Assembly: GCA_048940445.1 (NCBI GenBank)
Contig: JBHLON010000025.1
Span: 1 to 51,277 of the forward strand
Origin: Promethearchaeota archaeon
GTDB lineage: Archaea > Asgardarchaeota > Lokiarchaeia > Sigyniarchaeales > SOKP01
DNA length: 51,277 nucleotides
Reading direction: 5' to 3'
Shown here: in pieces, positions 30,358 to 43,077 of the stretch
How the letters are laid out: every line of letters begins with the position of its first letter
Position numbering within the stretch: position 1 is the first letter of the stretch
The notes under the pieces: generated by a model
Database searches by the model: none
What the model was told of the DNA's origin: nothing
What the model saw: only the letters and a program-made list of their open reading frames with translations
Translations under genes and position numbers: made by a program

Positions 30358-30732
30358 TTATTTCTTTCTTATTTTTTTTTCCATAAGTTTAGTATAAATA
30401 GAATTTATTTTAGTATCGACTTGAGTTAAAAGAGAGCTTTTTTTTTCTAAATCCTCTTGTAATTTCCTTACTTCCTTAATATCTGTTTTAGGATGTAGAA
30501 ATTCGACAAGAAAGGGGAGGTACTCTAATAGTTCTTCCACTACTAGCTCGCATTGTTGATAAATTTCTCTACGGAGCACTATCTCATTTACTTTCTTTTC
30601 CATCACATCTCTGATTAGAGCTTTCATTCTGAGCAACCAATCGGCATCAACCACTATTCTCTTAATATCTTCTCGTATCTCTTGGATAGTCTTTTTTTCT
30701 AATGTCATTGATTTATTCATACTTGAATTCAT
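30358..30732 (-). CDS. Small helical / coiled-coil hypothetical protein, last gene of the membrane operon
   Basis: 124-aa ORF starting 3 nt after the stop of the 1238-aa gene. Confidence 0.65.
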   Translation of the reverse strand: MNSSMNKSMTLEKKTIQEIREDIKRIVVDADWLLRMKALIRDVMEKKVNEIVLRREIYQQCELVVEELLEYLPFLVEFLHPKTDIKEVRKLQEDLEKKSSLLTQVDTKINSIYTKLMEKKIRKK

Positions 30733-30735
30733 ATG

Positions 30736-33700
30736 CTAAATCCCCTCTACAGATGCATAATCCTTAAGATTACTATAAAAGTCTCGAAATGCATGATACA
30801 ATTTATTAAGATTAGACTCTAATAGCTTTCCATCAATGTGTACATTCTCACTCTTATAAATTAAATCTTTCAAAGCTTCTAATGTATAAGGAAAATTTCT
30901 TAAATCTGAAAGTAGTGAAATAAGATCCTCAATATTTTCTCTCGTAATTGCATTTTGAGAGCCATAATAAGTTCGATACATACGTGCTAAGAATCGAGTG
31001 ATAAATTGTTTTGCATATTTGTGAAAGTTCAAGAAATCTTGGTTAGAAAGTGCTTTATGCATATAAAATAGTTCCCTTCTTACATCGGTTCCTAAGCTTT
31101 TATCTAATGCGTATTTAAGTTTTTGTTCTTTCTTTTGAGATACTACAGTTTTTGCGAAATCTTTAACAGAATCCGTTTCTTTCGATATAATAGCAACATC
31201 AATCCTACTAGTGTGTTTCGATTCATAATAGTCTGCTAAAGCTAAATCATACTGAGGGCCCACTGCATATGATGTTGCCATCTGTTCTCCTCCACCTGCA
31301 GTTCGGGGATGACTGGGAATGAGATATTTATGGTCAATCATAATTCCAAAGATCTGATTTCGTATGTTTCGCATCATAGTTCGGTCCTGACCAAATTTAA
31401 GTGAAATTGCTGGACCAAGAATATCCATTAATATCTTTAGTATTTTTTTCTTGAACAATCCCCCTACTTTTTCAACTGTCTTTATTGTTTCAAAAAAGGT
31501 CATAATTTCATCAAGAAAGATGACATATTCTCTAAAATTATTTTCAAATAATGTTGGTTTTGCTTGGGCAAGAATACGATGTTCACTATACCTTATGTCA
31601 TACCCTTGAGAACCCATATGCTTGACTATATCATGATATTCCATAGAGGGGAGTTGTGAAATATCTTCACCATCAATTGTTATAGGAAACGATTGGTAGA
31701 TGTCATCCCGTTTCATAAGCGCTCGATTGTTTATTAAATTTTTAAGATAGGGAATCTGATAAGTCTCTTTTCTTCGAGCATTATAATATCCTGTTCCATG
31801 GAGCTCATTTAAGTTCATATGGTTTGCTAAAACACTTATGTCTTGTTGATTGGTTCCTCTAAAAGTGACAATATTATGAAAAAAATTGAATACGTTAGAA
31901 TGTAAGTAATGGATATTATTACACAAGCAAATAAATCCAAAATTCTTCTGTAGTAAAGGTAAAAAAAACTTATTGATCTTACTATATTCCCCATTAGCAT
32001 CCAAAAATTTTTCTTGGAAGATAATATCTATGTGAGGGATAAAAAGAAATTTGGAATAAAATCGTGTGTTATGGTAAATATAATGTATAAATTTAGAGAG
32101 AATCACAAACACATAAAAGCATTGGCGTGTATAATCGGGATATTCGGATATATCGACGATAATTGTATGAGGTTTGGTTATGAATTCATGAGCTTTTGTT
32201 CTTTTTTCCTCTGATTGTGTAGCGTCATAAAAGAATGCCAAATCTTCAGCATCAAAATATTCAAGGTAGGAGAGAAGCGAATCACCATTAGAATCTTTTT
32301 CAAATGATGGTCTATTGTTAAACTCAACTTTCATAGCTTTAATATCGAGTCCTTGATGCTGGATCACAAAACTGCGAAACTTATTCATAATATATTTATT
32401 TGCCTTGATTGTAAATTGATAGGCATCATACATATATTGTAAATAGTGAAGATTATCGGGATCGTTCGGTACCATTTCAGAATGAATAGGATCTAAATTA
32501 AATGTCTTACCCAATTTGAAATAAAGTATATCACTGGCATATCTTGTTCCCTTAAAATATGTCAGTAATTTTCCCCAATTACCAGATATATCGAATACAA
32601 CAGAGGGGAGGTTCATTTTGATAAGTTCAGCCACTATTTTCATTGCTAAGAATTCACGCCTTTCATTTGTGCCGCAAGTAATGAGAAAAGAACGCAATTG
32701 TCTCAATAATAATCCTGCTTCTATTTCTAATTTACTTATTTCCGTATTGATGGTTTTCCCGAACACAACCTCATTCTTTAGATTCGTGGGAGTATTAAAT
32801 TCCGCAGCCACTTGCACTTGAGTACCTTTCTTTAATTCATCAGCTAAATAAATAATATACAAGAGCGTAGTGCCTTGAAAATAGACCTTTGCTAAATACG
32901 ATCCATTATATCGCAGGGAAGTATTTTTTAGGAACTCACATATCACTCCTGAACGCAATTTCATTTTTGAGAGAGGAGTAAGTGTATAGCTATTGGCATT
33001 AATATGGAAAACTTTTGAGATGGTATCTGCTTTTGTAGGCAACTCCTCTTCAATTTTTCGTATAGCATCTGTAGTAATATCCCTTATGGGAACAGAATAT
33101 GATGTTGAAATTAATATCGTAGCTTTCCACATCCCAGCCCTACGTCCTAACCACTTTTTTTCGTCAATCTCTCTCGTGACTTCTCTTGAAAGCTTATACT
33201 TTACATTATCTTTTAAATAATCTTGAGCTTGTTTCACAAATTCTAAATAGTGAACTGGAGTAGAAATGACTGTATAAGTAAAAGATAAGTCATGAGCAAT
33301 CACTCCCGATAAAAATTTCGAAAATGAACAATAAGGAGGGTCTATTACTTCAGTGACATTATATATTTGAATGCCCGTAATTTCGTGACTTCGAATATAA
33401 GCATAATAAATCTGGGGATTTTTTTTAGAGGTTAAAAACTGAATGTCATGAAAAGGTTGGATGATTACTACATTCTCATACCCAAAAATATTATTTTTAA
33501 TAAAATAAAATATAAAATCCCGTAGATACAGAAAGAATTGAGCAAATCCTATTATTATCATCAAAGGTAGTATAGAAAAGGGAGGGACTCCTAACATGAT
33601 AAATAATATAATAAAAAATGTATTTAATCCCAATGTAAATACTCCTTTTACCAGATTATGTTGTTTACTTCCCACCATAAGAGAGTTCTCTTCTGTATCG

Positions 33701-34452
33701 TATGTCTCTCTTTCATCAATTTTTTTATGGAACATTACACAACGAAACGCGTTAATTAATTCATGTCCTTTATATTGCTTAGTTTGAAAATGGTGGAAAT
33801 TTGCTGAGAACCCTGAAATTACTTGGCTTCCCACTGATTTTAATTGATCGTGCAAGAATTTTATTTTGCTCTCATTTAGCCATCCTGATACTGACCGAAA
33901 TACGGTAATAAAAATAGTGTCTCCTGTGGGACGATGCACTACTTGATAAGAGAATGAAGTTTTTGTTTCTAAAACTTGAAAAATGTTTATAAAATATCTC
34001 ATAGTAGCGTGAACAGTTTCGGGCTGTATTTCGATTTCAAAGATTTGAAGTCCCACAGTAAGCGAATCTACTTTATTAGTGTAAAACAAGGTTTCATTTT
34101 CATCCTTTATCATCCAAAAGACTAATTCTTTAAAGGGATTAAATTCTAGAGGGCGAAATAATTTTGCCAGTTGGAAGAAGGATTCATGGAATATAAGTAT
34201 AAATACAATGATAAAAGTTATTGCTAATCCTAATGATAAATATACATTATGACTCAAGAAATACATACATACCGCAAGTGTTATACCCATCCCAATTAAG
34301 AAGGTTGCCTTCAAGATTGAGAGCGTAAGATTGGTGTCTATATAAGAAGGATGAATATCAAAAATTGTCTTGAATTCATATTTGGATTCACTATTTTTCG
34401 ATTTACCTTCTTTCTCCGATTCAGTTAAAAAATGCGTATAAAACTCTCCCAT
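30736..34452 (-). CDS. Large membrane protein with a VirB4/HerA/FtsK-like P-loop fold domain, apparently catalytically degenerate
   Basis: Two TM hairpins. Fold landmarks: VVFG..., SFLITCGTNERRE (Walker A position), PSVVFDISGNW, FNLDP, TIIVDIS, KFLFIPHID (Walker B position), FGFICLCNN and IVTFR...DISVLANHMNL. Confidence 0.65.
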   Translation of the reverse strand: MGEFYTHFLTESEKEGKSKNSESKYEFKTIFDIHPSYIDTNLTLSILKATFLIGMGITLAVCMYFLSHNVYLSLGLAITFIIVFILIFHESFFQLAKLFRPLEFNPFKELVFWMIKDENETLFYTNKVDSLTVGLQIFEIEIQPETVHATMRYFINIFQVLETKTSFSYQVVHRPTGDTIFITVFRSVSGWLNESKIKFLHDQLKSVGSQVISGFSANFHHFQTKQYKGHELINAFRCVMFHKKIDERETYDTEENSLMVGSKQHNLVKGVFTLGLNTFFIILFIMLGVPPFSILPLMIIIGFAQFFLYLRDFIFYFIKNNIFGYENVVIIQPFHDIQFLTSKKNPQIYYAYIRSHEITGIQIYNVTEVIDPPYCSFSKFLSGVIAHDLSFTYTVISTPVHYLEFVKQAQDYLKDNVKYKLSREVTREIDEKKWLGRRAGMWKATILISTSYSVPIRDITTDAIRKIEEELPTKADTISKVFHINANSYTLTPLSKMKLRSGVICEFLKNTSLRYNGSYLAKVYFQGTTLLYIIYLADELKKGTQVQVAAEFNTPTNLKNEVVFGKTINTEISKLEIEAGLLLRQLRSFLITCGTNERREFLAMKIVAELIKMNLPSVVFDISGNWGKLLTYFKGTRYASDILYFKLGKTFNLDPIHSEMVPNDPDNLHYLQYMYDAYQFTIKANKYIMNKFRSFVIQHQGLDIKAMKVEFNNRPSFEKDSNGDSLLSYLEYFDAEDLAFFYDATQSEEKRTKAHEFITKPHTIIVDISEYPDYTRQCFYVFVILSKFIHYIYHNTRFYSKFLFIPHIDIIFQEKFLDANGEYSKINKFFLPLLQKNFGFICLCNNIHYLHSNVFNFFHNIVTFRGTNQQDISVLANHMNLNELHGTGYYNARRKETYQIPYLKNLINNRALMKRDDIYQSFPITIDGEDISQLPSMEYHDIVKHMGSQGYDIRYSEHRILAQAKPTLFENNFREYVIFLDEIMTFFETIKTVEKVGGLFKKKILKILMDILGPAISLKFGQDRTMMRNIRNQIFGIMIDHKYLIPSHPRTAGGGEQMATSYAVGPQYDLALADYYESKHTSRIDVAIISKETDSVKDFAKTVVSQKKEQKLKYALDKSLGTDVRRELFYMHKALSNQDFLNFHKYAKQFITRFLARMYRTYYGSQNAITRENIEDLISLLSDLRNFPYTLEALKDLIYKSENVHIDGKLLESNLNKLYHAFRDFYSNLKDYASVEGI

Positions 34453-34453
34453 G

Positions 34454-35287
34454 TTAGGATTCTCCTGATTTCAATAATTTTTTATATACAATTAAAAGTA
34501 CAATATCGCTTCCAGAGAATAATAGTAAATAGAAGCTAACTACCATAGTAATGTTGGGAAATAAAATCATCTCGTAAATGATGTTTATCCCCATAAACAT
34601 AAAAAATGCCATCACACCTAAAATGATATATTTTAAGTTTGATACCTCAGATATCTGATATATAAACGAATCCTGGATCCGCCCTTTTTTCTTAAGGGAT
34701 GTGATTGTGGTCTTCAATTTTTTCAAATATAATGCTTCCTCAAAGCATTCTTTATCAAAACCTTGCTCTAAGGATTTTTGTAGGTGTATTTCTTTCTGGT
34801 GAATATTATGTATTAACAATTGTTTTGATCGACTAGATTCGTGGTTTTTACCTTTAGTAGCCATCGTCATATATAAATTCAAATCAGTATCTCCGTGTAT
34901 AAAATCATTCCCTAAAATACCAAAGACATTGGGAACGTCAAGTTCTTGTAGCTCAAAATATAGGGAAAAAAGTTTTTTAATATGATCATATGGAAGTTCT
35001 CCTCGAAGTTTAAGGAATATAAGTTCTGTCACTTTCAAGCGTTCAATTATAGAAGCCATGAATACAGGACTCTTAATCAGGTTCTGAAAAACCATATTGA
35101 TGAATTCCATATACTGATACAAATGCTCATTTTCCTTCTTTTTTCGAGCCCGAATTCCTAAATTAGCTCCAATCTCATCAATTACGTTACTTAAAAGAAT
35201 GAATCCTACTACTGCTATTTTCTTATAATTTTGGGTTTGTTTGCAAAGATGGATAAGATGTTTTAGTTTTGAATCGACAATCTTCAT
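34454..35287 (-). CDS. Hypothetical protein with a helical N-terminal domain and two C-terminal TM helices
   Basis: 277 aa; overlaps the upstream gene by 4 nt; 1-nt gap to the next gene. Confidence 0.7.
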   Translation of the reverse strand: MKIVDSKLKHLIHLCKQTQNYKKIAVVGFILLSNVIDEIGANLGIRARKKKENEHLYQYMEFINMVFQNLIKSPVFMASIIERLKVTELIFLKLRGELPYDHIKKLFSLYFELQELDVPNVFGILGNDFIHGDTDLNLYMTMATKGKNHESSRSKQLLIHNIHQKEIHLQKSLEQGFDKECFEEALYLKKLKTTITSLKKKGRIQDSFIYQISEVSNLKYIILGVMAFFMFMGINIIYEMILFPNITMVVSFYLLLFSGSDIVLLIVYKKLLKSGES

Positions 35288-36006
35288 CCTTTTGTCACAC
35301 TCCTTTGATTTTTAATCGATTTTCTTGTTGTCTTATTTATTGAATCATTTAAAGGGAAATTACGAGTTAACTCTAGTTCCTCTTCTCGGATCAATTTATC
35401 GAAATCAATTGGTTCTTGAATGGTTTTTATATACGCATTCACATCCTCTTGTGGAGACGAAGAGGAATGCTCCATTGTAATTGATAATTTATAGTAGAAA
35501 ATAGAATAAGGAAATACTAGGATAAAACCTATTCCCTGCAGCAGATAACCCCACTCTATACTATAACTAAAAATGAGATTGAGATTTGGCTCATAAAATG
35601 ATATCCAGGGGATGTAATATTGATAAGGTATCAGATAAAAAACAGGATATATTACAAGAAAGAATCCCATGAGAAGAATGGAAAAGATAAGCACATAAGA
35701 GAATATTTTTCGTGGACTACGGAATACTACTCCAATCATGGAAATTATTAATGAAACAAAGAACACGATAATCATGGTAAGAGGTATTGGTTTTGCGACA
35801 GGAGTATAAAGTTCATTAAATACGGAACCTTCTCCAAAAATGGAATACCAGTTAAAAATAGGATTATATCCCCAATAGACTACGAGATTCCCACTCTGAT
35901 CTTTTGCCTGGAACAAATACCAATCAAAAAATAATGAGACTCCGGATATTATTATTCCAACAAGGAGCATAATTCGAAGTACATTTGATAATTTCATATC
36001 ATACAC
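35284..36006 (-). CDS. Four-TM membrane protein
   Basis: Four hydrophobic helices, an aromatic-rich loop after TM1 (SLFFDWY...WGY...NWY) and a charged C-terminal tail. Confidence 0.75.
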   Translation of the reverse strand: MYDMKLSNVLRIMLLVGIIISGVSLFFDWYLFQAKDQSGNLVVYWGYNPIFNWYSIFGEGSVFNELYTPVAKPIPLTMIIVFFVSLIISMIGVVFRSPRKIFSYVLIFSILLMGFFLVIYPVFYLIPYQYYIPWISFYEPNLNLIFSYSIEWGYLLQGIGFILVFPYSIFYYKLSITMEHSSSSPQEDVNAYIKTIQEPIDFDKLIREEELELTRNFPLNDSINKTTRKSIKNQRSVTKG

Positions 36007-36007
36007 C

Positions 36008-37957
36008 TTATTTTGCTAGGTATTCATCTAATTTTTCATCATATGTATCCTTGTTTTTATTTGACTCAAAGAGATTTTCTATCAGAGTATTTGAAGAGTT
36101 CTCAATTGGTGTGCTAAGCACTTGTTTCGTTCGATGTTCTTCGATTTGATTTAAGAGTTTATATTCTGAGGTTTTTCCAAAGCACTCATATCCAAATTGA
36201 AGCATAAGCTCATCTACAAGATCTCGATAAATTATTTCCAAACTAGCATCATCTAATTCTACTGGTTTTTGATAAGAAGGAATAGCAAATTGGTTTCTTA
36301 AGTCTTTTCGCATATTTTTAAATTTATAAAATAAATATCCTACCATTATTCCATAGACTCCTAGCATCGTATAACTCAGTCCAATAAATGGCAGTAATAA
36401 GGTTGGTATTTGAGTAAGGGCAATCATAATTGTGAGCCCCCCAAATCCCGCAGGAATAAGCGAATAATACATAAGTTTTTTTTGAAATTCTTGATTAGTG
36501 TGCTGGTAAGTATCCTCCGTTTGTTTAGCATCATTATACTCTTCAATATATCCATGTTTCTGTTCTAAAAATTCCAATAAATCAGTTATTTGAGAAGTTG
36601 AAATGTAATGGATATTATAAGTTCTCTGATACGCAAAAGGGATGGACTTCTCCACATATTTAACTTCATTATTAGAAATGAGGATGGGATCACAATATAC
36701 AGATATAATTTCTCTAGCAGAAAAAAGTGTAGACTCATTTTTTACTACTTGGTCCTGGACCATATCTATTTTAGTCATTAAAAAATTCTGTATATACTGA
36801 AAGAAATTACCGTTAATTGCCATCTCCTCAGAAATTATCTCTTGAGCATGGATTAAGTGGGACATATAAGATTTTATCAAGAAGTTGTGTTCTGCTTCTT
36901 GCTGATATTCAATAATATCTTCAGAGATTAATAATATATCCTCTATCTCAGCTATTTTAATAGGAGTGATTAATAGAATTTGTTGTTCAGGTTTGAACAA
37001 ATACATTTTAAAGAATAAAAGATCAATCTCCTGAAGGAAAGTTTCTTGAATAATTTGGGTTGGAACAGAATAAAAACCCTCAGATCCTACTTCCTTAATT
37101 ATTTGATCATAAATTGTAATAGGCTCCTCTTTAGCATGCTTCTCCAGATCTTGCATTTTTGGGTACTTCTCTTGATCATGGAGTTTTTCTACTTCTATAA
37201 TATCGGATTCATGAGGTAATTCGAAAATGCTTCTAATATGTTTAACTTTCTTTTTAGATAGTTCCTTTTCAATAAATACTTCATCCTCTATAGTTGCGTT
37301 ATCTTCTTCAATAGTTTCTATTTGTTCTTTTTGCGCTACTTCTGCTTTTAGAAACCGTTCTTGATAGGAGAACTGATCATTCTCCTCCGTTGATTTTGAC
37401 TTAATATCCTGTGAGACTAGGGCACTTTCGCTTTGTTCTTCATTTTTCACTTCTTTAACCGTTTTTATATTTAATTTTAATTGTGGAGTGTTTATAGCTT
37501 CGTAATCATTTTTAAGCCCTAAATACTCCCGTGCAGAGAGGATAAATTTATTTGCAGTTTCTATCCCGATCCCCCTAACACGGGATAGTATTTTTGGAGT
37601 AGAAAATGCAATTTTATTTATGGTAGTGTATCCAGCGTCCCATAACTTTCGTTTATGTGTAGGACTTACACCGTTGACCTTAGTTAAATCCTCATACAAT
37701 ATTTTCTCTAGTATAGCATCATTCTTAATTGGAAAATCTGAAGATTGCTCAGTAAGCGCTCGAGAGATTTCCTCAAACTTGTTCTTCCATTCAATATTAC
37801 TGTCTAATTCTGACTTTCTTAACCCCTTTTTAGATAACTCAACAGCCTGATCTATATCTCCGGATTCCAATGCCTGTTGAGTCATATCATAAAGATAACT
37901 CAACTCCCATTTCTTTTCCAATGATTCTTGCATACTGATAAGAAGTTTGCTCCTCAT
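36008..37957 (-). CDS. Membrane-anchored helix-hairpin-helix (HhH) DNA-binding protein
   Basis: Tandem HhH DLTKVNGVSP...DAGYTT...SRVRGIGIETANK (RadA/Rad51-N-like), an acidic linker, a globular domain and two TM helices near the C-terminus. True start may be ATG 37933 (leaderless spacing from the TATA box). Confidence 0.75.
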   Translation of the reverse strand: MRSKLLISMQESLEKKWELSYLYDMTQQALESGDIDQAVELSKKGLRKSELDSNIEWKNKFEEISRALTEQSSDFPIKNDAILEKILYEDLTKVNGVSPTHKRKLWDAGYTTINKIAFSTPKILSRVRGIGIETANKFILSAREYLGLKNDYEAINTPQLKLNIKTVKEVKNEEQSESALVSQDIKSKSTEENDQFSYQERFLKAEVAQKEQIETIEEDNATIEDEVFIEKELSKKKVKHIRSIFELPHESDIIEVEKLHDQEKYPKMQDLEKHAKEEPITIYDQIIKEVGSEGFYSVPTQIIQETFLQEIDLLFFKMYLFKPEQQILLITPIKIAEIEDILLISEDIIEYQQEAEHNFLIKSYMSHLIHAQEIISEEMAINGNFFQYIQNFLMTKIDMVQDQVVKNESTLFSAREIISVYCDPILISNNEVKYVEKSIPFAYQRTYNIHYISTSQITDLLEFLEQKHGYIEEYNDAKQTEDTYQHTNQEFQKKLMYYSLIPAGFGGLTIMIALTQIPTLLLPFIGLSYTMLGVYGIMVGYLFYKFKNMRKDLRNQFAIPSYQKPVELDDASLEIIYRDLVDELMLQFGYECFGKTSEYKLLNQIEEHRTKQVLSTPIENSSNTLIENLFESNKNKDTYDEKLDEYLAK

Positions 37958-38042: not shown

Positions 38043-40562
38043 ATGACACTTCATAATTTTACGAGCGATGGTCCTAAAGAATTGGTATTACAAGATGAGG
38101 AAATATTCACCTATATAGCTGATAAGCGGATACTTAGAGTATTATTTGAGCAAAAGATTTTTGCATTACGGGACATTCAAAAAAAAGCTATCGAAAAAGG
38201 GTTGTTCTTTCGAAAATCATTTTTAATTTGTTCCCCATCAGGAAGTGGAAAAACTTTAATCGGAGAAATATGTGCTTTTCATAATATATTCAATAATTAT
38301 GGAAAATCTATTTATTTGGTTCCCTTCAAAGCATTGGCTACCGAGAAATTCTATTATTTCAAAAAATATTATGAACGATTTAAGGTTAAGATTATACTCT
38401 CAATTGGAGATTATGATGTAGATGATTCTAAATTAGAAAAGGGAGATTTAATTATCACTACATATGAAAAATGCGATTCTATTTTGAGAAATTTCTATGA
38501 TAAGGCATGGATCCATGATATTTCCACAATTATTATAGACGAAATTCATATTGTAGGAGATTCGGATCGAGGTCCGAGATTGGAATCTCTAATTGTAAGA
38601 TTAAACGAATTTTTGCATAATCCTCAAATAATTGGACTTTCCGCTACGATTGCGAATCCCAATTTTTTCAATGAATGGCTTACTTCACTAGGAAATAATA
38701 CAACTCTTATTCAATCCGATGATCGTCCTGTTCCTCTTCATTATCAAATTATAACTACTCAAAATAAGGATTCAACAATTAAAAAAATAGTGAAGCACAC
38801 TCTAGACCAAAAGGGCCAAGTATTGATATTTTTAAATAAACGAATATCTACACAACAATCTTCATTTTTGCTGAAAAATGTAGTTAAGAACCATATTGTA
38901 CAGGACGACTTAAATAAATGTAAAATATTCAAAGAAAAATTGAGTGAGATTAAAGGAGGGCACAAAGATATAAAAAGTATTGTAAATTATGGACTTGCCT
39001 TTCACCATGCGGGGTTGTTGCCAAAAGAAAGAAGATTAGTAGAGAATGGTTTTCGTAAAAAAGTAATAAAGGTAATATGTGCTACCACCACATTAAGTGC
39101 AGGTATTAATACACCATCGCGAGTAGTAGTGCTTCGAGACTTTAAAAAATATATCACTTCGGGGCATAATATCAAAAACTTTTCTGGGTATGTAGAAAAT
39201 GGAGATGGGTTTTATTATTTCAAACCCTTTTCTGCAAACCAAGTATTTCAGATGCTGGGAAGAGCAGGTAGACCAGGACTAGATTCTATAGGTTATGGAA
39301 TTATCTTAGTAAATAATGTAGAAGAAAGAAATTGGGTTGAGGAAAACTATTTTCAGAGAAAAGGTGCTGATAAGAAATTAATACCTATATATAGTAATCT
39401 GGTCTCGGGATTAAATAAAGTGAACATCCTTAAGGAGCAGGTGCTTTTGAGGATTTATGAAGAAGGTGCAATCACTCTTGACCAATTAAAAAGTTTTTTT
39501 GAGCGAACATATTTTTGGTTCTTTATTAAGCAAAAAATGAAGGCGCAAGAGATCCCAATCGAGCAAATCTTAATGATCCAAGAGATAACTCCTGAAAATA
39601 TATTGAAATTACATGCTGATCCTAAAAGATTAGCCCAATTAAAGCATAAAAATTATCAGATAAAAATAACTGAAGTTGCAAGTTCAATCATTGGGGGGGT
39701 TTTAAAGACCGAATTTGGTATCTATACGTGTGAATTTAGCATTGACCATGGAATTCGATGTTCATGTGGGTTCAAAAATGGTATTTCTGATAATTTTTCA
39801 AACAACGAATTTGCATTCGAATTTTGTGATCATATTACCTATTTTTTAAATTATTTGATCGAAATTTCTGATACCAATTTTAGAAAATATATAAGAGACA
39901 TTATTCCTAAATCGATCAAGAACCAGTATATCCTGAACTATTTATTTGAAAACGGATTAATCGAACCCAATCCCAATAATACAATCAGGTGCAGTCAATT
40001 TGGGAAATTAATTATTCGTTTGTATTTATATCCAACGTCAGGAGTTTTGATTCGATATAAATTGGAAAATAATCAGCTTCACACCGCCCAAGATATTATT
40101 AGGGAAGCCTATGACATACTCCGAGTAGAATTTAAAGTTAGGGATTATAAAATGCTTCAGCCAATTTTGGAATGGACAGATGAAGTACCTATTGAAGAAA
40201 TTTTAGAGCGCTATCACATTTTAGCTGGAGACTTATATACAATCCGAGATAATTTAGAGCGAATTATCACTTTTATCGGAATTATTGCTATTCATCTAAG
40301 CGAAAATGATATTGAACTTCAAGATATGATGACTCAAATTGCAGAGATGGCCGAGACTTTAAAGATTCGAGTACACTATGGAATAAAAGAGGAGTTATTT
40401 GATTTGATATTGCGTTTGGATAACGTAGCACGAGTTAGAGCCAGAATTATCTATGATGCGGGATATCACACTGCAGCTCAAGTACGTAGAAAGAATCCTT
40501 ATATATTACACCGGAAAACGGGATTAGGCGTTAATCTCTGTAAAAAAATTATAAATAAATAG
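38043..40562 (+). CDS. Ski2/Hel308-like SF2 DNA helicase with an inserted SWIM-type zinc finger
   Basis: PSGSGKT, VPFKALA, TYEK, DEIH, RGPRLE, SAT, FHHAGL, TTTLSAGIN, QMLGRAGRPG and C-terminal HhH (VARVRAR.IYDAG). Insert CSC...CDH. Confidence 0.9.
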   Translation: MTLHNFTSDGPKELVLQDEEIFTYIADKRILRVLFEQKIFALRDIQKKAIEKGLFFRKSFLICSPSGSGKTLIGEICAFHNIFNNYGKSIYLVPFKALATEKFYYFKKYYERFKVKIILSIGDYDVDDSKLEKGDLIITTYEKCDSILRNFYDKAWIHDISTIIIDEIHIVGDSDRGPRLESLIVRLNEFLHNPQIIGLSATIANPNFFNEWLTSLGNNTTLIQSDDRPVPLHYQIITTQNKDSTIKKIVKHTLDQKGQVLIFLNKRISTQQSSFLLKNVVKNHIVQDDLNKCKIFKEKLSEIKGGHKDIKSIVNYGLAFHHAGLLPKERRLVENGFRKKVIKVICATTTLSAGINTPSRVVVLRDFKKYITSGHNIKNFSGYVENGDGFYYFKPFSANQVFQMLGRAGRPGLDSIGYGIILVNNVEERNWVEENYFQRKGADKKLIPIYSNLVSGLNKVNILKEQVLLRIYEEGAITLDQLKSFFERTYFWFFIKQKMKAQEIPIEQILMIQEITPENILKLHADPKRLAQLKHKNYQIKITEVASSIIGGVLKTEFGIYTCEFSIDHGIRCSCGFKNGISDNFSNNEFAFEFCDHITYFLNYLIEISDTNFRKYIRDIIPKSIKNQYILNYLFENGLIEPNPNNTIRCSQFGKLIIRLYLYPTSGVLIRYKLENNQLHTAQDIIREAYDILRVEFKVRDYKMLQPILEWTDEVPIEEILERYHILAGDLYTIRDNLERIITFIGIIAIHLSENDIELQDMMTQIAEMAETLKIRVHYGIKEELFDLILRLDNVARVRARIIYDAGYHTAAQVRRKNPYILHRKTGLGVNLCKKIINK

Positions 40563-41850: not shown

Positions 41851-43077
41851 ATGATTACTCAAAAAGCTTTTCCCTATTATATTTTGCAACATAAGGAATT
41901 ATTTCCGGATACTATTGATGAATACCTGCTTAAGCTCTTTCCCTTAGTGGATTTGAATATTGAAAATAGAGTATGTTATCCTTTTGAGTTGGAGACTCGA
42001 TTAGGTAACACAAAAGTTAACCCTTTCTTACGAATTGCGCAGCCAAATGATGCAGAAACTATTGCTGAGGCTTCTAAGGAAGTTTATGAGTCTACATATC
42101 CATATAAAGAAATGGAAGACGCAGAGTATATAAGAAAAATGATAAAAAGTCCAGAAAATCACTTCATTCTTTTTGAGACTGAAACTGGAGAAAATGCAGG
42201 ATGTTTTCGGTGTGCACTAGATTATGAGCATAGAAAAGGTTATATGGGAGGCTTTATGATCCGCAAGAAATTTCAAGGAAAACTAGATGTAATACGAGCA
42301 ATTATGGGCTCTTACATCTGGATGTGGAATTCTTTCAAAGATGAGATTCTAGTATGGTATTGTGAGAATCGAACTGCTCATGCTTCCTCACAATACATCA
42401 CAGCGATTTGTGGCATTAATACAGTGGCCATCTTTCCTAATAAAGATATTTTTTTTGGTGATATTGAGTCTGATGTGATGGGGATAATCTATGTAGAAGA
42501 AGTATTAAGGAGGTTAAGAGTGCCGCAAATCCCGTGTTTTATCAAAGCTGTAGAAAAACCCTATTTATATTCAGATAGATTATACAATCTTGGTAAATAT
42601 CAAATTAGAAGTCCAAAAATTAGTTTAGATGAATCAAGGATTAATGAAGTTAAGAGGATATTTGCATGCAAAGTCTCTACGGATAAATATGGATATGAAT
42701 ATTATAGGTTTATTATAAGGTATTCTGGCTCTTATTTTGAATTTTTGCATAACTCTTATATTCAAAACCTTGAAAAAGCAAAATTTCATGTGGAATCTTT
42801 GGAAGAATTATATGTGTTTATTCAGGAGTTAAAAAAAGTAATGGATCAACTTAACGTTAGATATTGTGAGGTTTTCATCTCAGCTTATCGTCCTAAGCAT
42901 CAACAGTTATTCTATAACTTCGGGTTTCGTCCTAGGGGATACGTCCCATGTTGGAACTATGATATTAGAAATAATACTTTTGAAGATAGTGTTATCTTTA
43001 ATTACTTTGAAGGTGAGATCACCAACATTGATTTGTTACCCCAAGGATATAATTTGTTAAATAGTATCGAGATATAA
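41851..43077 (+). CDS. Tandem GNAT-fold protein
   Basis: LRIAQPNDAE, YPY, IRKKFQGK, ENRTAHxxSQ and GFRPRGYVP. Confidence 0.65.
   Translation: MITQKAFPYYILQHKELFPDTIDEYLLKLFPLVDLNIENRVCYPFELETRLGNTKVNPFLRIAQPNDAETIAEASKEVYESTYPYKEMEDAEYIRKMIKSPENHFILFETETGENAGCFRCALDYEHRKGYMGGFMIRKKFQGKLDVIRAIMGSYIWMWNSFKDEILVWYCENRTAHASSQYITAICGINTVAIFPNKDIFFGDIESDVMGIIYVEEVLRRLRVPQIPCFIKAVEKPYLYSDRLYNLGKYQIRSPKISLDESRINEVKRIFACKVSTDKYGYEYYRFIIRYSGSYFEFLHNSYIQNLEKAKFHVESLEELYVFIQELKKVMDQLNVRYCEVFISAYRPKHQQLFYNFGFRPRGYVPCWNYDIRNNTFEDSVIFNYFEGEITNIDLLPQGYNLLNSIEI

Follow-up and report, generated by a model that had tools for sequence, protein, structure and literature searches.

A VirB4-type protein with a remodelled nucleotide site in a conserved membrane-protein operon of Asgard archaea

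Introduction

What can a protein of VirB4 build do if its ATP site consists of other residues? In type IV secretion and conjugation the ATPase VirB4 serves as the signature protein, and substrate transfer is considered to require its activity. The question is raised by a locus of a Promethearchaeota archaeon, which lies in a stretch of 51,277 nt of contig JBHLON010000025.1 (G+C content about 32%). This whole stretch is called the window below, and all coordinates refer to it unless a locus in another genome is named. The gene concerned encodes a protein of 1238 aa, for which an initial annotation, made from the sequence alone, had proposed a catalytically dead VirB4/HerA-type fold. We call the protein and its relatives pseudo-VirB4; full-text literature searches found no description of the family or of its operon.

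The explanation that we favour, and that we consider probable, is that pseudo-VirB4 is a non-catalytic platform of the VirB3-VirB4 type, belonging to a membrane complex that handles DNA and in which partner motors do the work. What makes the case worth describing is that a whole family of VirB4 build, found so far only in Asgard archaea, has exchanged its ATP site for different, equally conserved residues, and that its gene is still a core chromosomal gene tied to Hel308, with a sister branch tied to RadA, XPD and FEN1-like genes. If our explanation is correct, a secretion motor would have been turned into a scaffold and its work outsourced to a helicase.

Results and Discussion

The fold is of the VirB4 type

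The sequence libraries are blind to this protein. It has no meaningful match in Pfam or NCBIfam, the Pfam model of DUF87 (PF01935) itself does not match it, and a comparison with all PDB chains gave no meaningful match either by phmmer or by the profiles of the family alignments A1 and A2. The fold was therefore tested by structure. We gathered 55 related loci from GTDB species genomes, excised the region equivalent to aa 325-1100, and used an alignment of 44 sequences of this region (A2) as the input for structure prediction with AlphaFold (AF2). The resulting model, in which residue 1 corresponds to aa 325 and residues 220-630 to aa 544-954, has a mean predicted local distance difference test score (pLDDT) of 81 and a predicted template modelling score (pTM) of 0.65, and the pLDDT of most of the core lies between 85 and 96.

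A Foldseek search of the PDB with this model finds TrwK, the VirB4 protein of plasmid R388, in the first place (8rtd_O, E 1.4e-12, 713 columns), followed by 7o42_A and 7o43; together these matches have E values of 1e-12 to 1e-11 over 690-780 columns. HerA (4d2i, 8xau), the C-domain of DndH and the VirB4 protein of T. pseudethanolicus are among the further matches. Alignment of the RecA-like domain (aa 544-954) by VIA-align gives a similar picture, with the highest score for the C-terminal domain of VirB4 (4ag5_A, Z 24.6, 330 aligned residues), followed by HerA (4d2i_A, Z 24.4, 319 residues), DndH-C (7es4, Z 24.2, 326 residues) and TrwB (1e9s_F, Z 21.9, 344 residues); the model scores Z 13.8 against EccC. 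Full-length TrwK chains align at Z 16-18, with model residues 8-627 corresponding to TrwK 217-805; for 8rtd_O the score is Z 17.6 over 492 aligned residues (model 13-627 to chain 221-804). Since the TrwK chains also cover the domain that precedes the RecA-like core, the N-terminal module is VirB4-like and is not a generic partner of a P-loop domain. The VirB4/HerA-type fold that had been suspected from the sequence is thus confirmed, and the region is a P-loop (RecA-like) fold whose relationship to VirB4 and HerA is visible solely by fold and by profile-profile methods. A language-model look-up (ESM-Atlas) places the domain nearest to a 'CedB family' cluster and to type IV coupling proteins, which we take only as a lead.

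The nucleotide site is remodelled, and the replacements are conserved

A P-loop protein binds phosphate and Mg and activates water through the Lys and Ser/Thr of its Walker A motif and the Asp-Glu of Walker B. To locate these positions in pseudo-VirB4, active DUF87/HerA-like proteins encoded in this genome and in related ones were aligned, and the family profile was compared with this alignment by hhalign (probability 96%, E 2.5e-9, 314 columns). In the Walker A region C593-G594-T-N-E-R598-R599-E600 is paired with [GA]-x-S-G-x-G-K-S, in the strand after the P-loop helix SVVFDISGNW is paired with IiiD-HgEY, TIIVDIS is paired with the 'I-nl' strand of the active HerA-like proteins, in Walker B FLFI-P806-H807-I-D809 is paired with liiE-E-A-H, and at the sensor C-N845-N846 is paired with t-Q-R of tQRP. 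The secondary structure of the model is in agreement with this pairing: a strand at 588-592 is followed by a three-residue loop and a helix at 596-612, and the strand 802-805 precedes P-H-I-D. The strings therefore occupy the true Walker positions. The chemistry is swapped, as the Walker A Lys has become Arg599, the Mg-ligand Ser/Thr has become Glu600 and the glycine of GK is gone, while the Walker B Asp has become Pro806 and the catalytic Glu has become His807.

The three motif strings named in the initial annotation all exist, even if ITCGTNERRE begins at 32682 and the quoted start at 32691 adds three residues. Its reading of a Walker A without GK[T/S] and of a Walker B without DE agrees with the hhalign mapping and with the conservation of the replacements, the Pro of Walker B being invariant in 44 homologs. 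The supposed loss of the sensor Gln holds for this window only: Asn846 is indeed found here, but 41 of the 44 family sequences keep Gln846. In other words, Asn846 is a lineage-specific change, and the replacements in Walker A and Walker B are family-wide.

All 54 GTDB homologs have N-G-x-x-x-x-R-[ED] at the place of Walker A and none has GK[ST]. When 1.84 billion representatives were searched in full by HMMER, using the profile of A2, 221 relatives were found; among the 120 retrieved relatives that cover the site GK[ST] never occurs, and 92 of them have Arg at the position of the lysine. The substitutes belong to the best-conserved columns of the whole family: G594, F620, D621, G624, P806, R894, Q899, R915 and D917 are found in 100% of the 44 homologs, R599 and D809 in 98% and an acidic residue (Glu or Asp) at position 600 in 93%. 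Five of the residues of the loop at aa 886-899 are invariant (G886, G888, Y890, R894 and Q899), and the Arg and the YQ of this loop are retained even in the short-form relatives (770-850 aa). The short forms have G-G-T-x-x-[ED]-R at Walker A, an acidic residue ends their Walker B strand, and the catalytic Glu is gone.

Because the Walker ligands are replaced, canonical binding and hydrolysis of Mg-ATP by pseudo-VirB4 is very unlikely; the loss of ATPase activity is a strong expectation from P-loop chemistry. One could still imagine that R599, D621, D809 and R894 form a new phosphate pocket and that the protein, as a nucleotide-binding or hydrolysing motor, powers translocation by itself. The conservation of these residues, which is like that of a catalytic site, and the acidic residue retained at the end of the Walker B strand in the short-form branch speak for such a motor. 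We nevertheless consider it quite unlikely, given that the Mg ligand has been replaced by Glu or Asp and the glycine of GK by S, R, E or Q, that the P-loop of the model has only three residues before the helix, that His or Asn stands at the position of the catalytic Glu and an invariant Pro at that of the Walker B Asp, and that the relatives are uniform in lacking GK[ST] and mostly have Arg at the position of the lysine.

The family is old and is found in Asgard archaea

The full-length homologs are 30-52% identical to the protein of the window, and those that are named come solely from Asgard archaea; the same holds for all relatives that carry a source name. Full-length orthologs with the same replacement residues are present in Loki-, Thor-, Hod- and Hermod-type genomes, and a search with a distant query detects the family in 106 of 301 genomes sampled from the phylum. 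Identity to the closest ortholog available is 51-52%, with synonymous sites saturated. When the core domain is placed in a maximum-likelihood tree, the whole pseudo-ATPase superfamily falls into a single clade, apart from the active Asgard HerA-like proteins (support 100). The sequence of the window is sister to that of a Hermodarchaeota metagenome-assembled genome (locus L001) within the clade of long forms, in which the class-2 paralogs described below are also nested. We conclude that the nucleotide site was remodelled before the Asgard lineages diverged, and that pseudo-VirB4 is a new and ancient variant of the VirB4 family, Asgard-only so far, with a rebuilt and probably inert nucleotide site.

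These data also bear on the possibility that the gene is simply decaying, i.e. that an active VirB4 or HerA of a defunct mobile element is being eroded in this lineage. There are a few private changes in the site of the window copy (C593, R598, C844 and N846) that one may cite in its favour. The open reading frame at 30736-34452(-) is, as had been stated before, intact, with 1238 open codons, no stop and no frameshift; the divergent orthologs of the four genome types carry the same replacements, and the chromosomal synteny is conserved. The initial annotation had left it to the orthologs to tell conserved degeneration from local decay, and they argue for the former, since the substitutes themselves are conserved. 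We give decay next to no chance and reject it: with GK[ST] in 0 of 54 homologs and 0 of 120 relatives and the substitutes conserved in 44, it is not a property of one eroding copy.

Domain architecture

From what the model and the sequence comparisons suggest, the protein would be membrane-anchored and would contain, in this order, a duplicated unit of a transmembrane (TM) hairpin and a VirB4 N-terminal-domain (NTD)-like module, the RecA-like domain, a probable winged helix and a helical tail (Table 1). The duplication is seen when aa 35-262 are aligned by hhalign to aa 263-530 over 44 homologs (probability 98.8%, E 1.2e-16): judged by its sequence, the long form contains a tandem duplication of the hairpin and module, extending over 32929-34320 (aa ~42-511). 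Short-form relatives have one copy of the hairpin and module.

The conserved loop at aa 886-899 is possibly a pore or interface loop. A winged helix at aa ~1001-1080 is likely but weakly supported, by the model and by the equivalent C-termini of short forms, which have sub-threshold matches to HTH_34 (3.4e-5 and 2.5e-4) and to PadR. When alignment A1 was read for an Rx4-6H (HEPN) motif, neither the C-terminal tail nor the 124-aa protein encoded downstream showed a conserved one, and the string RRELFYMH is private to this window in the same alignment.

Table 1. Positions of the features discussed in the text. L numbers are our handles for loci in other genomes; these rows have their own coordinates.
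Feature	Position	Strand	Basis or remark
Pseudo-VirB4 gene, 1238-aa VirB3-VirB4-like predicted pseudo-ATPase	30736..34452	-	intact reading frame and Asgard homologs
First TM hairpin, aa ~44-88	34189..34323	-	hydropathy scan, segments 44-62 and 70-88
First alpha/beta module, aa ~95-245, copy of the VirB4-NTD-like module	33718..34170	-	hhalign self-comparison
Second TM hairpin, aa ~271-310	33523..33642	-	hydropathy scan, segments 271-289 and 292-310
Second alpha/beta module, aa 325-525, VirB4-NTD-like	32878..33480	-	model 8-200 corresponds to TrwK ~217-400
RecA-like P-loop-fold domain, aa 544-954, VirB4/HerA/TrwB type	31591..32823	-	VIA-align; pLDDT mostly 85-96
Remodelled Walker A ITCGTNERRE, aa 591-600	32653..32682	-	R599 at the Lys position, E600 at the Ser/Thr position
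Strand after the P-loop helix, SVVFDISGNW, aa 617-626	32575..32604	-	corresponds to HerA IiiD-HgEY by hhalign
Remodelled Walker B FLFIPHID, aa 802-809	32026..32049	-	P806-H807 at the D-E positions
Sensor strand and motif CLCNN, aa 842-846	31915..31929	-	family consensus S-A-N-Q
Invariant loop GTGYYNARRKETYQ, aa 886-899	31756..31797	-	pLDDT <50 for model residues 560-572
Winged-helix domain (probable), aa ~1001-1080	31213..31452	-	model H-H-H-strand-strand-H
C-terminal helical tail, aa 1100-1238	30739..31155	-	least conserved part of alignment A1; no family match
Operon gene 1, 649 aa: RadA-N-terminal-like helix-hairpin-helix, alpha/beta domain and TM hairpin	36008..37957	-	HHH_5 1.6e-9
Operon gene 2, 240-aa polytopic membrane protein	35284..36006	-	TM segments
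Operon gene 3, 277 aa, C-terminal TM hairpin	34454..35287	-	TM segments 220-238 and 248-266
Operon gene 5, 124-aa coiled-coil-like protein, poorly conserved	30358..30732	-	homolog detectable in 2 of 55 loci
Hel308-like superfamily 2 helicase, candidate motor partner	38043..40562	+	DEAD, Helicase_C and Helicase_dom4_arc matches
Class-2 operon	L039:8300-20433; also L028, L034, L037, L043, L044, L052		Loki-type genomes
Short-form cluster	L089:2352-17831		~15 kb, co-directional; same order in L090, L091, L092, L094, L095, partly in L096

The operon and the Hel308-like neighbour

Pseudo-VirB4 is encoded by the fourth of five co-directional genes, whose products have 649, 240, 277, 1238 and 124 aa and which are spaced by +1, -4, +1 and +3 nt. 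The synteny, as seen by tblastn and extraction of reading frames in the 55 loci, includes the gene of the 649-aa protein in 33-34, that of the 240-aa protein in 32-34 and that of the 277-aa protein in 37 of them. The most informative partner is the 649-aa protein, whose helix-hairpin-helix (HhH) domain (aa ~89-146, 37520-37690) superposes on the N-terminal domain of RadA (1t4g, 38% identity, root-mean-square deviation 0.9 A over 58 residues) and is similar, too, to the HhH in the helicase-like domain of POLQ (Z 9.2). In the model of this protein (pLDDT 70) Foldseek and VIA-wide recognise solely the HhH and generic helical hairpins, and find no known fold for the alpha/beta domain at aa ~280-475. 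The 240-aa protein shows no homology to known families in library, PDB-profile and VirB6-model searches, and the profiles of the 240-aa and 277-aa proteins give merely chance-level matches to G-protein-coupled receptors in the PDB.

The operon faces, across 85 bp, a divergent gene for a Hel308-like helicase; no other protein of this genome matches Hel308 better. Among the 27 loci with an upstream flank of 1.5 kb or more, 24 have a Hel308-like gene in this divergent position upstream of the operon. A further gene of the surroundings encodes a 408-aa protein with a weak GNAT match (0.0032), at 41851-43077(+); its homologs occur in 28 of the 55 loci, mostly directly downstream of pseudo-VirB4 and on the same strand, and in the window it sits on the far side of the Hel308-like gene. 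The 408-aa protein probably belongs to the same module as pseudo-VirB4.

According to the hydropathy scan TM segments are present in pseudo-VirB4 and in three of its four operon neighbours, i.e. in 4 of the 5 operon proteins. A membrane assembly of this sort may also suggest a base platform for protein secretion or for a surface structure, comparable to the pilus biogenesis of type IV secretion systems (T4SS) or to EccC of type VII secretion systems, with no DNA substrate at all. EccC is indeed among the fold matches, and VirB4 is needed for pilus biogenesis, which an active-site mutant still supports: as the passage on the Agrobacterium virB4 mutant in PMC2653234 cites it, VirB3 and VirB8 are still stabilised and the pilus is formed. 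On the other hand, a partner with a cytoplasmic, RadA-like HhH DNA-binding domain and a probable winged helix are not what one would expect of such a platform, the neighbourhood consistently consists of DNA helicases and recombinases, and no pilin-like gene or gene for a substrate with a signal peptide was recognised in the operon. We regard a role in secretion as unlikely.

Related branches and the other motors of this genome

Eleven of the 55 loci lack the neighbours found in the window; these are the class-2 paralogs. Most of those with enough flank have the order TPR (tetratricopeptide repeat) or unknown protein, pseudo-VirB4 of ~1280 aa, soluble protein of ~650 aa and giant protein of 1400-1800 aa. 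The ~650-aa protein matches DUF87 and has intact Walker A and Walker B motifs (GLTGxGKT and VTDE), with weak matches to the mad8/HerA models of PADLOC, and the giant protein of L039 has matches to the TFIIB repeat (PF00382, 2.1e-19) and to helix-turn-helix families. To judge from the motifs, class-2 operons would pair a dead VirB4-like protein with a live HerA-like ATPase.

The short forms occur in another Asgard family, where in 7 of 8 loci a pseudo-VirB4 of ~785 aa lies directly upstream of a Hel308-like gene. The cluster also encodes RadA (Rad51 Pfam model, 1.5e-53), an XPD-like helicase, two RadA paralogs, an XPG/FEN1-like nuclease and several TM proteins, including one with 2 and one with 5 TM segments. 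What the long-form and short-form branches have in common is pseudo-VirB4, the helicase and a theme of membrane proteins plus recombination. In one Asgard family the short-form gene is split in G050 (C1:2535539-2537961) and in five other genomes into parts of ~290 and ~535 aa. In six genomes of that family a single TAA interrupts the region that matches the ~290-aa part, which can be a conserved split or a read-through.

The genome of the window, which is 93% complete, has one copy of the pseudo-VirB4 family. Whole-genome searches found no VirB4 with an AAA_10 domain (PF12846) and no match to PF03135 even at E <= 1, nor is there a homolog of the class-2 HerA-like ATPase; the class-2 operon is missing as well. 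Three ordinary DUF87 proteins are encoded on other contigs, and nothing ties them to the operon. The earlier suggestion that the protein is powered by a partner thus receives indirect support from the HerA-like ATPase of class 2 and from the Hel308 linkage in two deep branches; the searches of this genome brought up no active paralog, the other candidate that it had named.

A proposed platform for partner motors

We read pseudo-VirB4 as a platform because of the HhH partner, the probable winged helix, the Hel308 linkage in two deep branches with different gene orders, and the HerA-like partner in class 2. After the remodelling of its site the protein would have been kept under strong constraint as a structural platform. 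On the cytoplasmic side it would be the base of a complex to which the three co-translated membrane proteins also belong; by analogy with VirB4 and HerA it is probably an oligomer, perhaps a ring. One partner would bring the RadA-like HhH DNA-binding domain, and the complex would handle DNA at the membrane, in uptake, in export or in tethering for recombination. The mechanical work would come from a partner motor, i.e. from the divergent Hel308-like helicase in the window and from the adjacent active HerA-like ATPase in class-2 operons. Bacterial competence, in which DNA is probably drawn through ComEC by the DEAD-box helicase ComFA, may serve as an analogy only.

Several points weigh against this explanation. 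Phosphate or a nucleotide could be bound non-canonically by the Arg that replaces the lysine and by the invariant R894. There is no recognisable VirB6/CedA pore or VirB2/CedA1 pilin among the operon partners. As the Hel308-like gene is the best Hel308 candidate of the genome, the linkage could be no more than inherited synteny with a housekeeping gene. The nine accessory clusters of the short forms, compared by hhalign with the three accessory proteins of the window, show no homology (probabilities <=4%). Finally, the operon proteins are 38-61% identical to those of the Hermodarchaeota locus L001, whereas the flanks (Hel308, a 358-aa protein, the carbamate kinase arcC and a penicillin-amidase-like acylase) are 81-91% identical, so the operon at 30358-37957 is evolving much faster than its surroundings, and this pattern also fits a conflict system.

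The last point deserves to be followed, as pseudo-VirB4 might be the sensor or scaffold of an antiviral conflict system directed at nucleic acids, like the HerA-effector complexes, with the Hel308 link being a coincidence of synteny. Besides the rapid divergence, the fold is shared with the HerA of SIR2-HerA and DUF4297-HerA systems and with DndH-C, and the class-2 operons, with their TPR protein, active HerA-like ATPase and giant protein, look more defence-like. The five operon proteins, pseudo-VirB4 included, have no match among the PADLOC models, which an undescribed system could escape, and Pfam and NCBIfam detect no effector domain (nuclease, SIR2, HEPN, TIR) in the operon of the window. 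Furthermore, the gene is present in a single copy here, its distribution is vertical and its synteny stable across families, as opposed to a patchy occurrence in islands, and the short-form branch sits within a RadA/XPD/FEN1 recombination cluster. A conflict system is therefore unlikely in our opinion, and the platform with partner motors remains the explanation that we prefer; the pairing with a helicase of DNA repair, which is conserved among the Asgard lineages, suggests a membrane-bound machine for DNA handling that has not been described before.

Comparison with known systems

It is instructive to compare pseudo-VirB4 with the VirB4 proteins of T4SS. An N-terminal domain of the VirB4 type and, after it, a RecA-like C-terminal domain are common to it, to TrwK of R388 and to the VirB4 of T. 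pseudethanolicus, and with the VirB3-VirB4 fusions of T4SS it shares N-terminal TM hairpins and the small membrane proteins encoded alongside. The differences are considerable. Firstly, in comparison to VirB4 it lacks the GK[ST] of Walker A, the DE of Walker B and any CagE_TrbE_VirB or AAA_10 signal. Secondly, it has a duplicated hairpin-plus-NTD module, a probable extra winged helix at the C-terminal side and a tail. Thirdly, it is chromosomal, Asgard-only in named records, and linked to Hel308 instead of VirB6, VirB8, VirB9, VirB10, VirB11 and VirD4. PDB-profile and Pfam-model searches showed no homology of the operon membrane proteins to VirB3, VirB6 or VirB8, and a whole-genome search with TrbL/VirB6 (PF04610) gave one sub-threshold match (E 0.745) on another contig.

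A precedent for a VirB4 with a degenerate site is VirB4b of Rickettsia (RvhB4-II), whose NTP cleft is degenerate and for which the role of a gate has been proposed, one that would stabilise the channel without powering it (PMC2653234). The likeness consists in a full-length VirB4 with a substituted NTP-binding cleft; the Rickettsia protein, as opposed to the Asgard family, in which the degeneration is phylum-wide, is a recent paralog that accompanies an active VirB4a in a canonical T4SS, and a canonical VirB4 is absent from the genome of the window. HerA (DUF87) and the other hexameric translocases of its kind share the RecA-like core with pseudo-VirB4, as is seen from both the fold and the profile comparison given above. 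In contrast to HerA, pseudo-VirB4 has a VirB4-like and not a HerA-type N-terminal domain, is predicted to be membrane-anchored, and has neither Walker motifs nor a NurA, SIR2 or DUF4297 partner.

A parallel in archaea is provided by the Ced and Ted systems, in which VirB4/VirB6/VirB2 machines have been domesticated for repair-linked import of chromosomal DNA; Ted loci also hold the repair genes Rad50 and HerA, and CedB is described as the ATPase that powers import (PMC9905601). The same paper does not mention Asgard archaea. CedB and TedB resemble pseudo-VirB4 in being archaeal, chromosomal, domesticated VirB4-like proteins encoded together with membrane proteins; the nucleotide site, on the other hand, is remodelled in pseudo-VirB4, though the fold is present.

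Should DNA be moved or tethered by the complex, Asgard archaea would have their first candidate for a DNA-exchange apparatus, and it would bear on recombination between cells in the lineage that gave rise to eukaryotes. A function in DNA exchange is no more than plausible. One can go further and picture a phylum-wide, chromosomally encoded machine for DNA exchange in Asgard archaea, derived from a T4SS- or Ced-like ancestor, in which VirB4 would be a passive docking ring and a Hel308-type or HerA-like motor would pull DNA through a membrane channel and hand it directly to RadA-family recombinases. This extended scenario is speculative and we would rather doubt it; if true, it would provide a dedicated route of inter-cellular recombination in the closest prokaryotic relatives of eukaryotes.

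A minor observation concerns the transcription factor B (TFB) family. A TFB paralog is encoded in the window at 48858-50120(-), 14 kb from the operon, and TFB-like genes lie a few kb upstream of two class-2 operons (L028:4542-5471(-) and L055:427-1356(-)). For Sulfolobales it has been described that, once DNA is damaged, the Ced and Ups genes are activated by the paralog TFB3 (PMC6101591 and PMC6101594), and by analogy the TFB paralog near the operon may be seen as a parallel to the control of Ced by TFB3.

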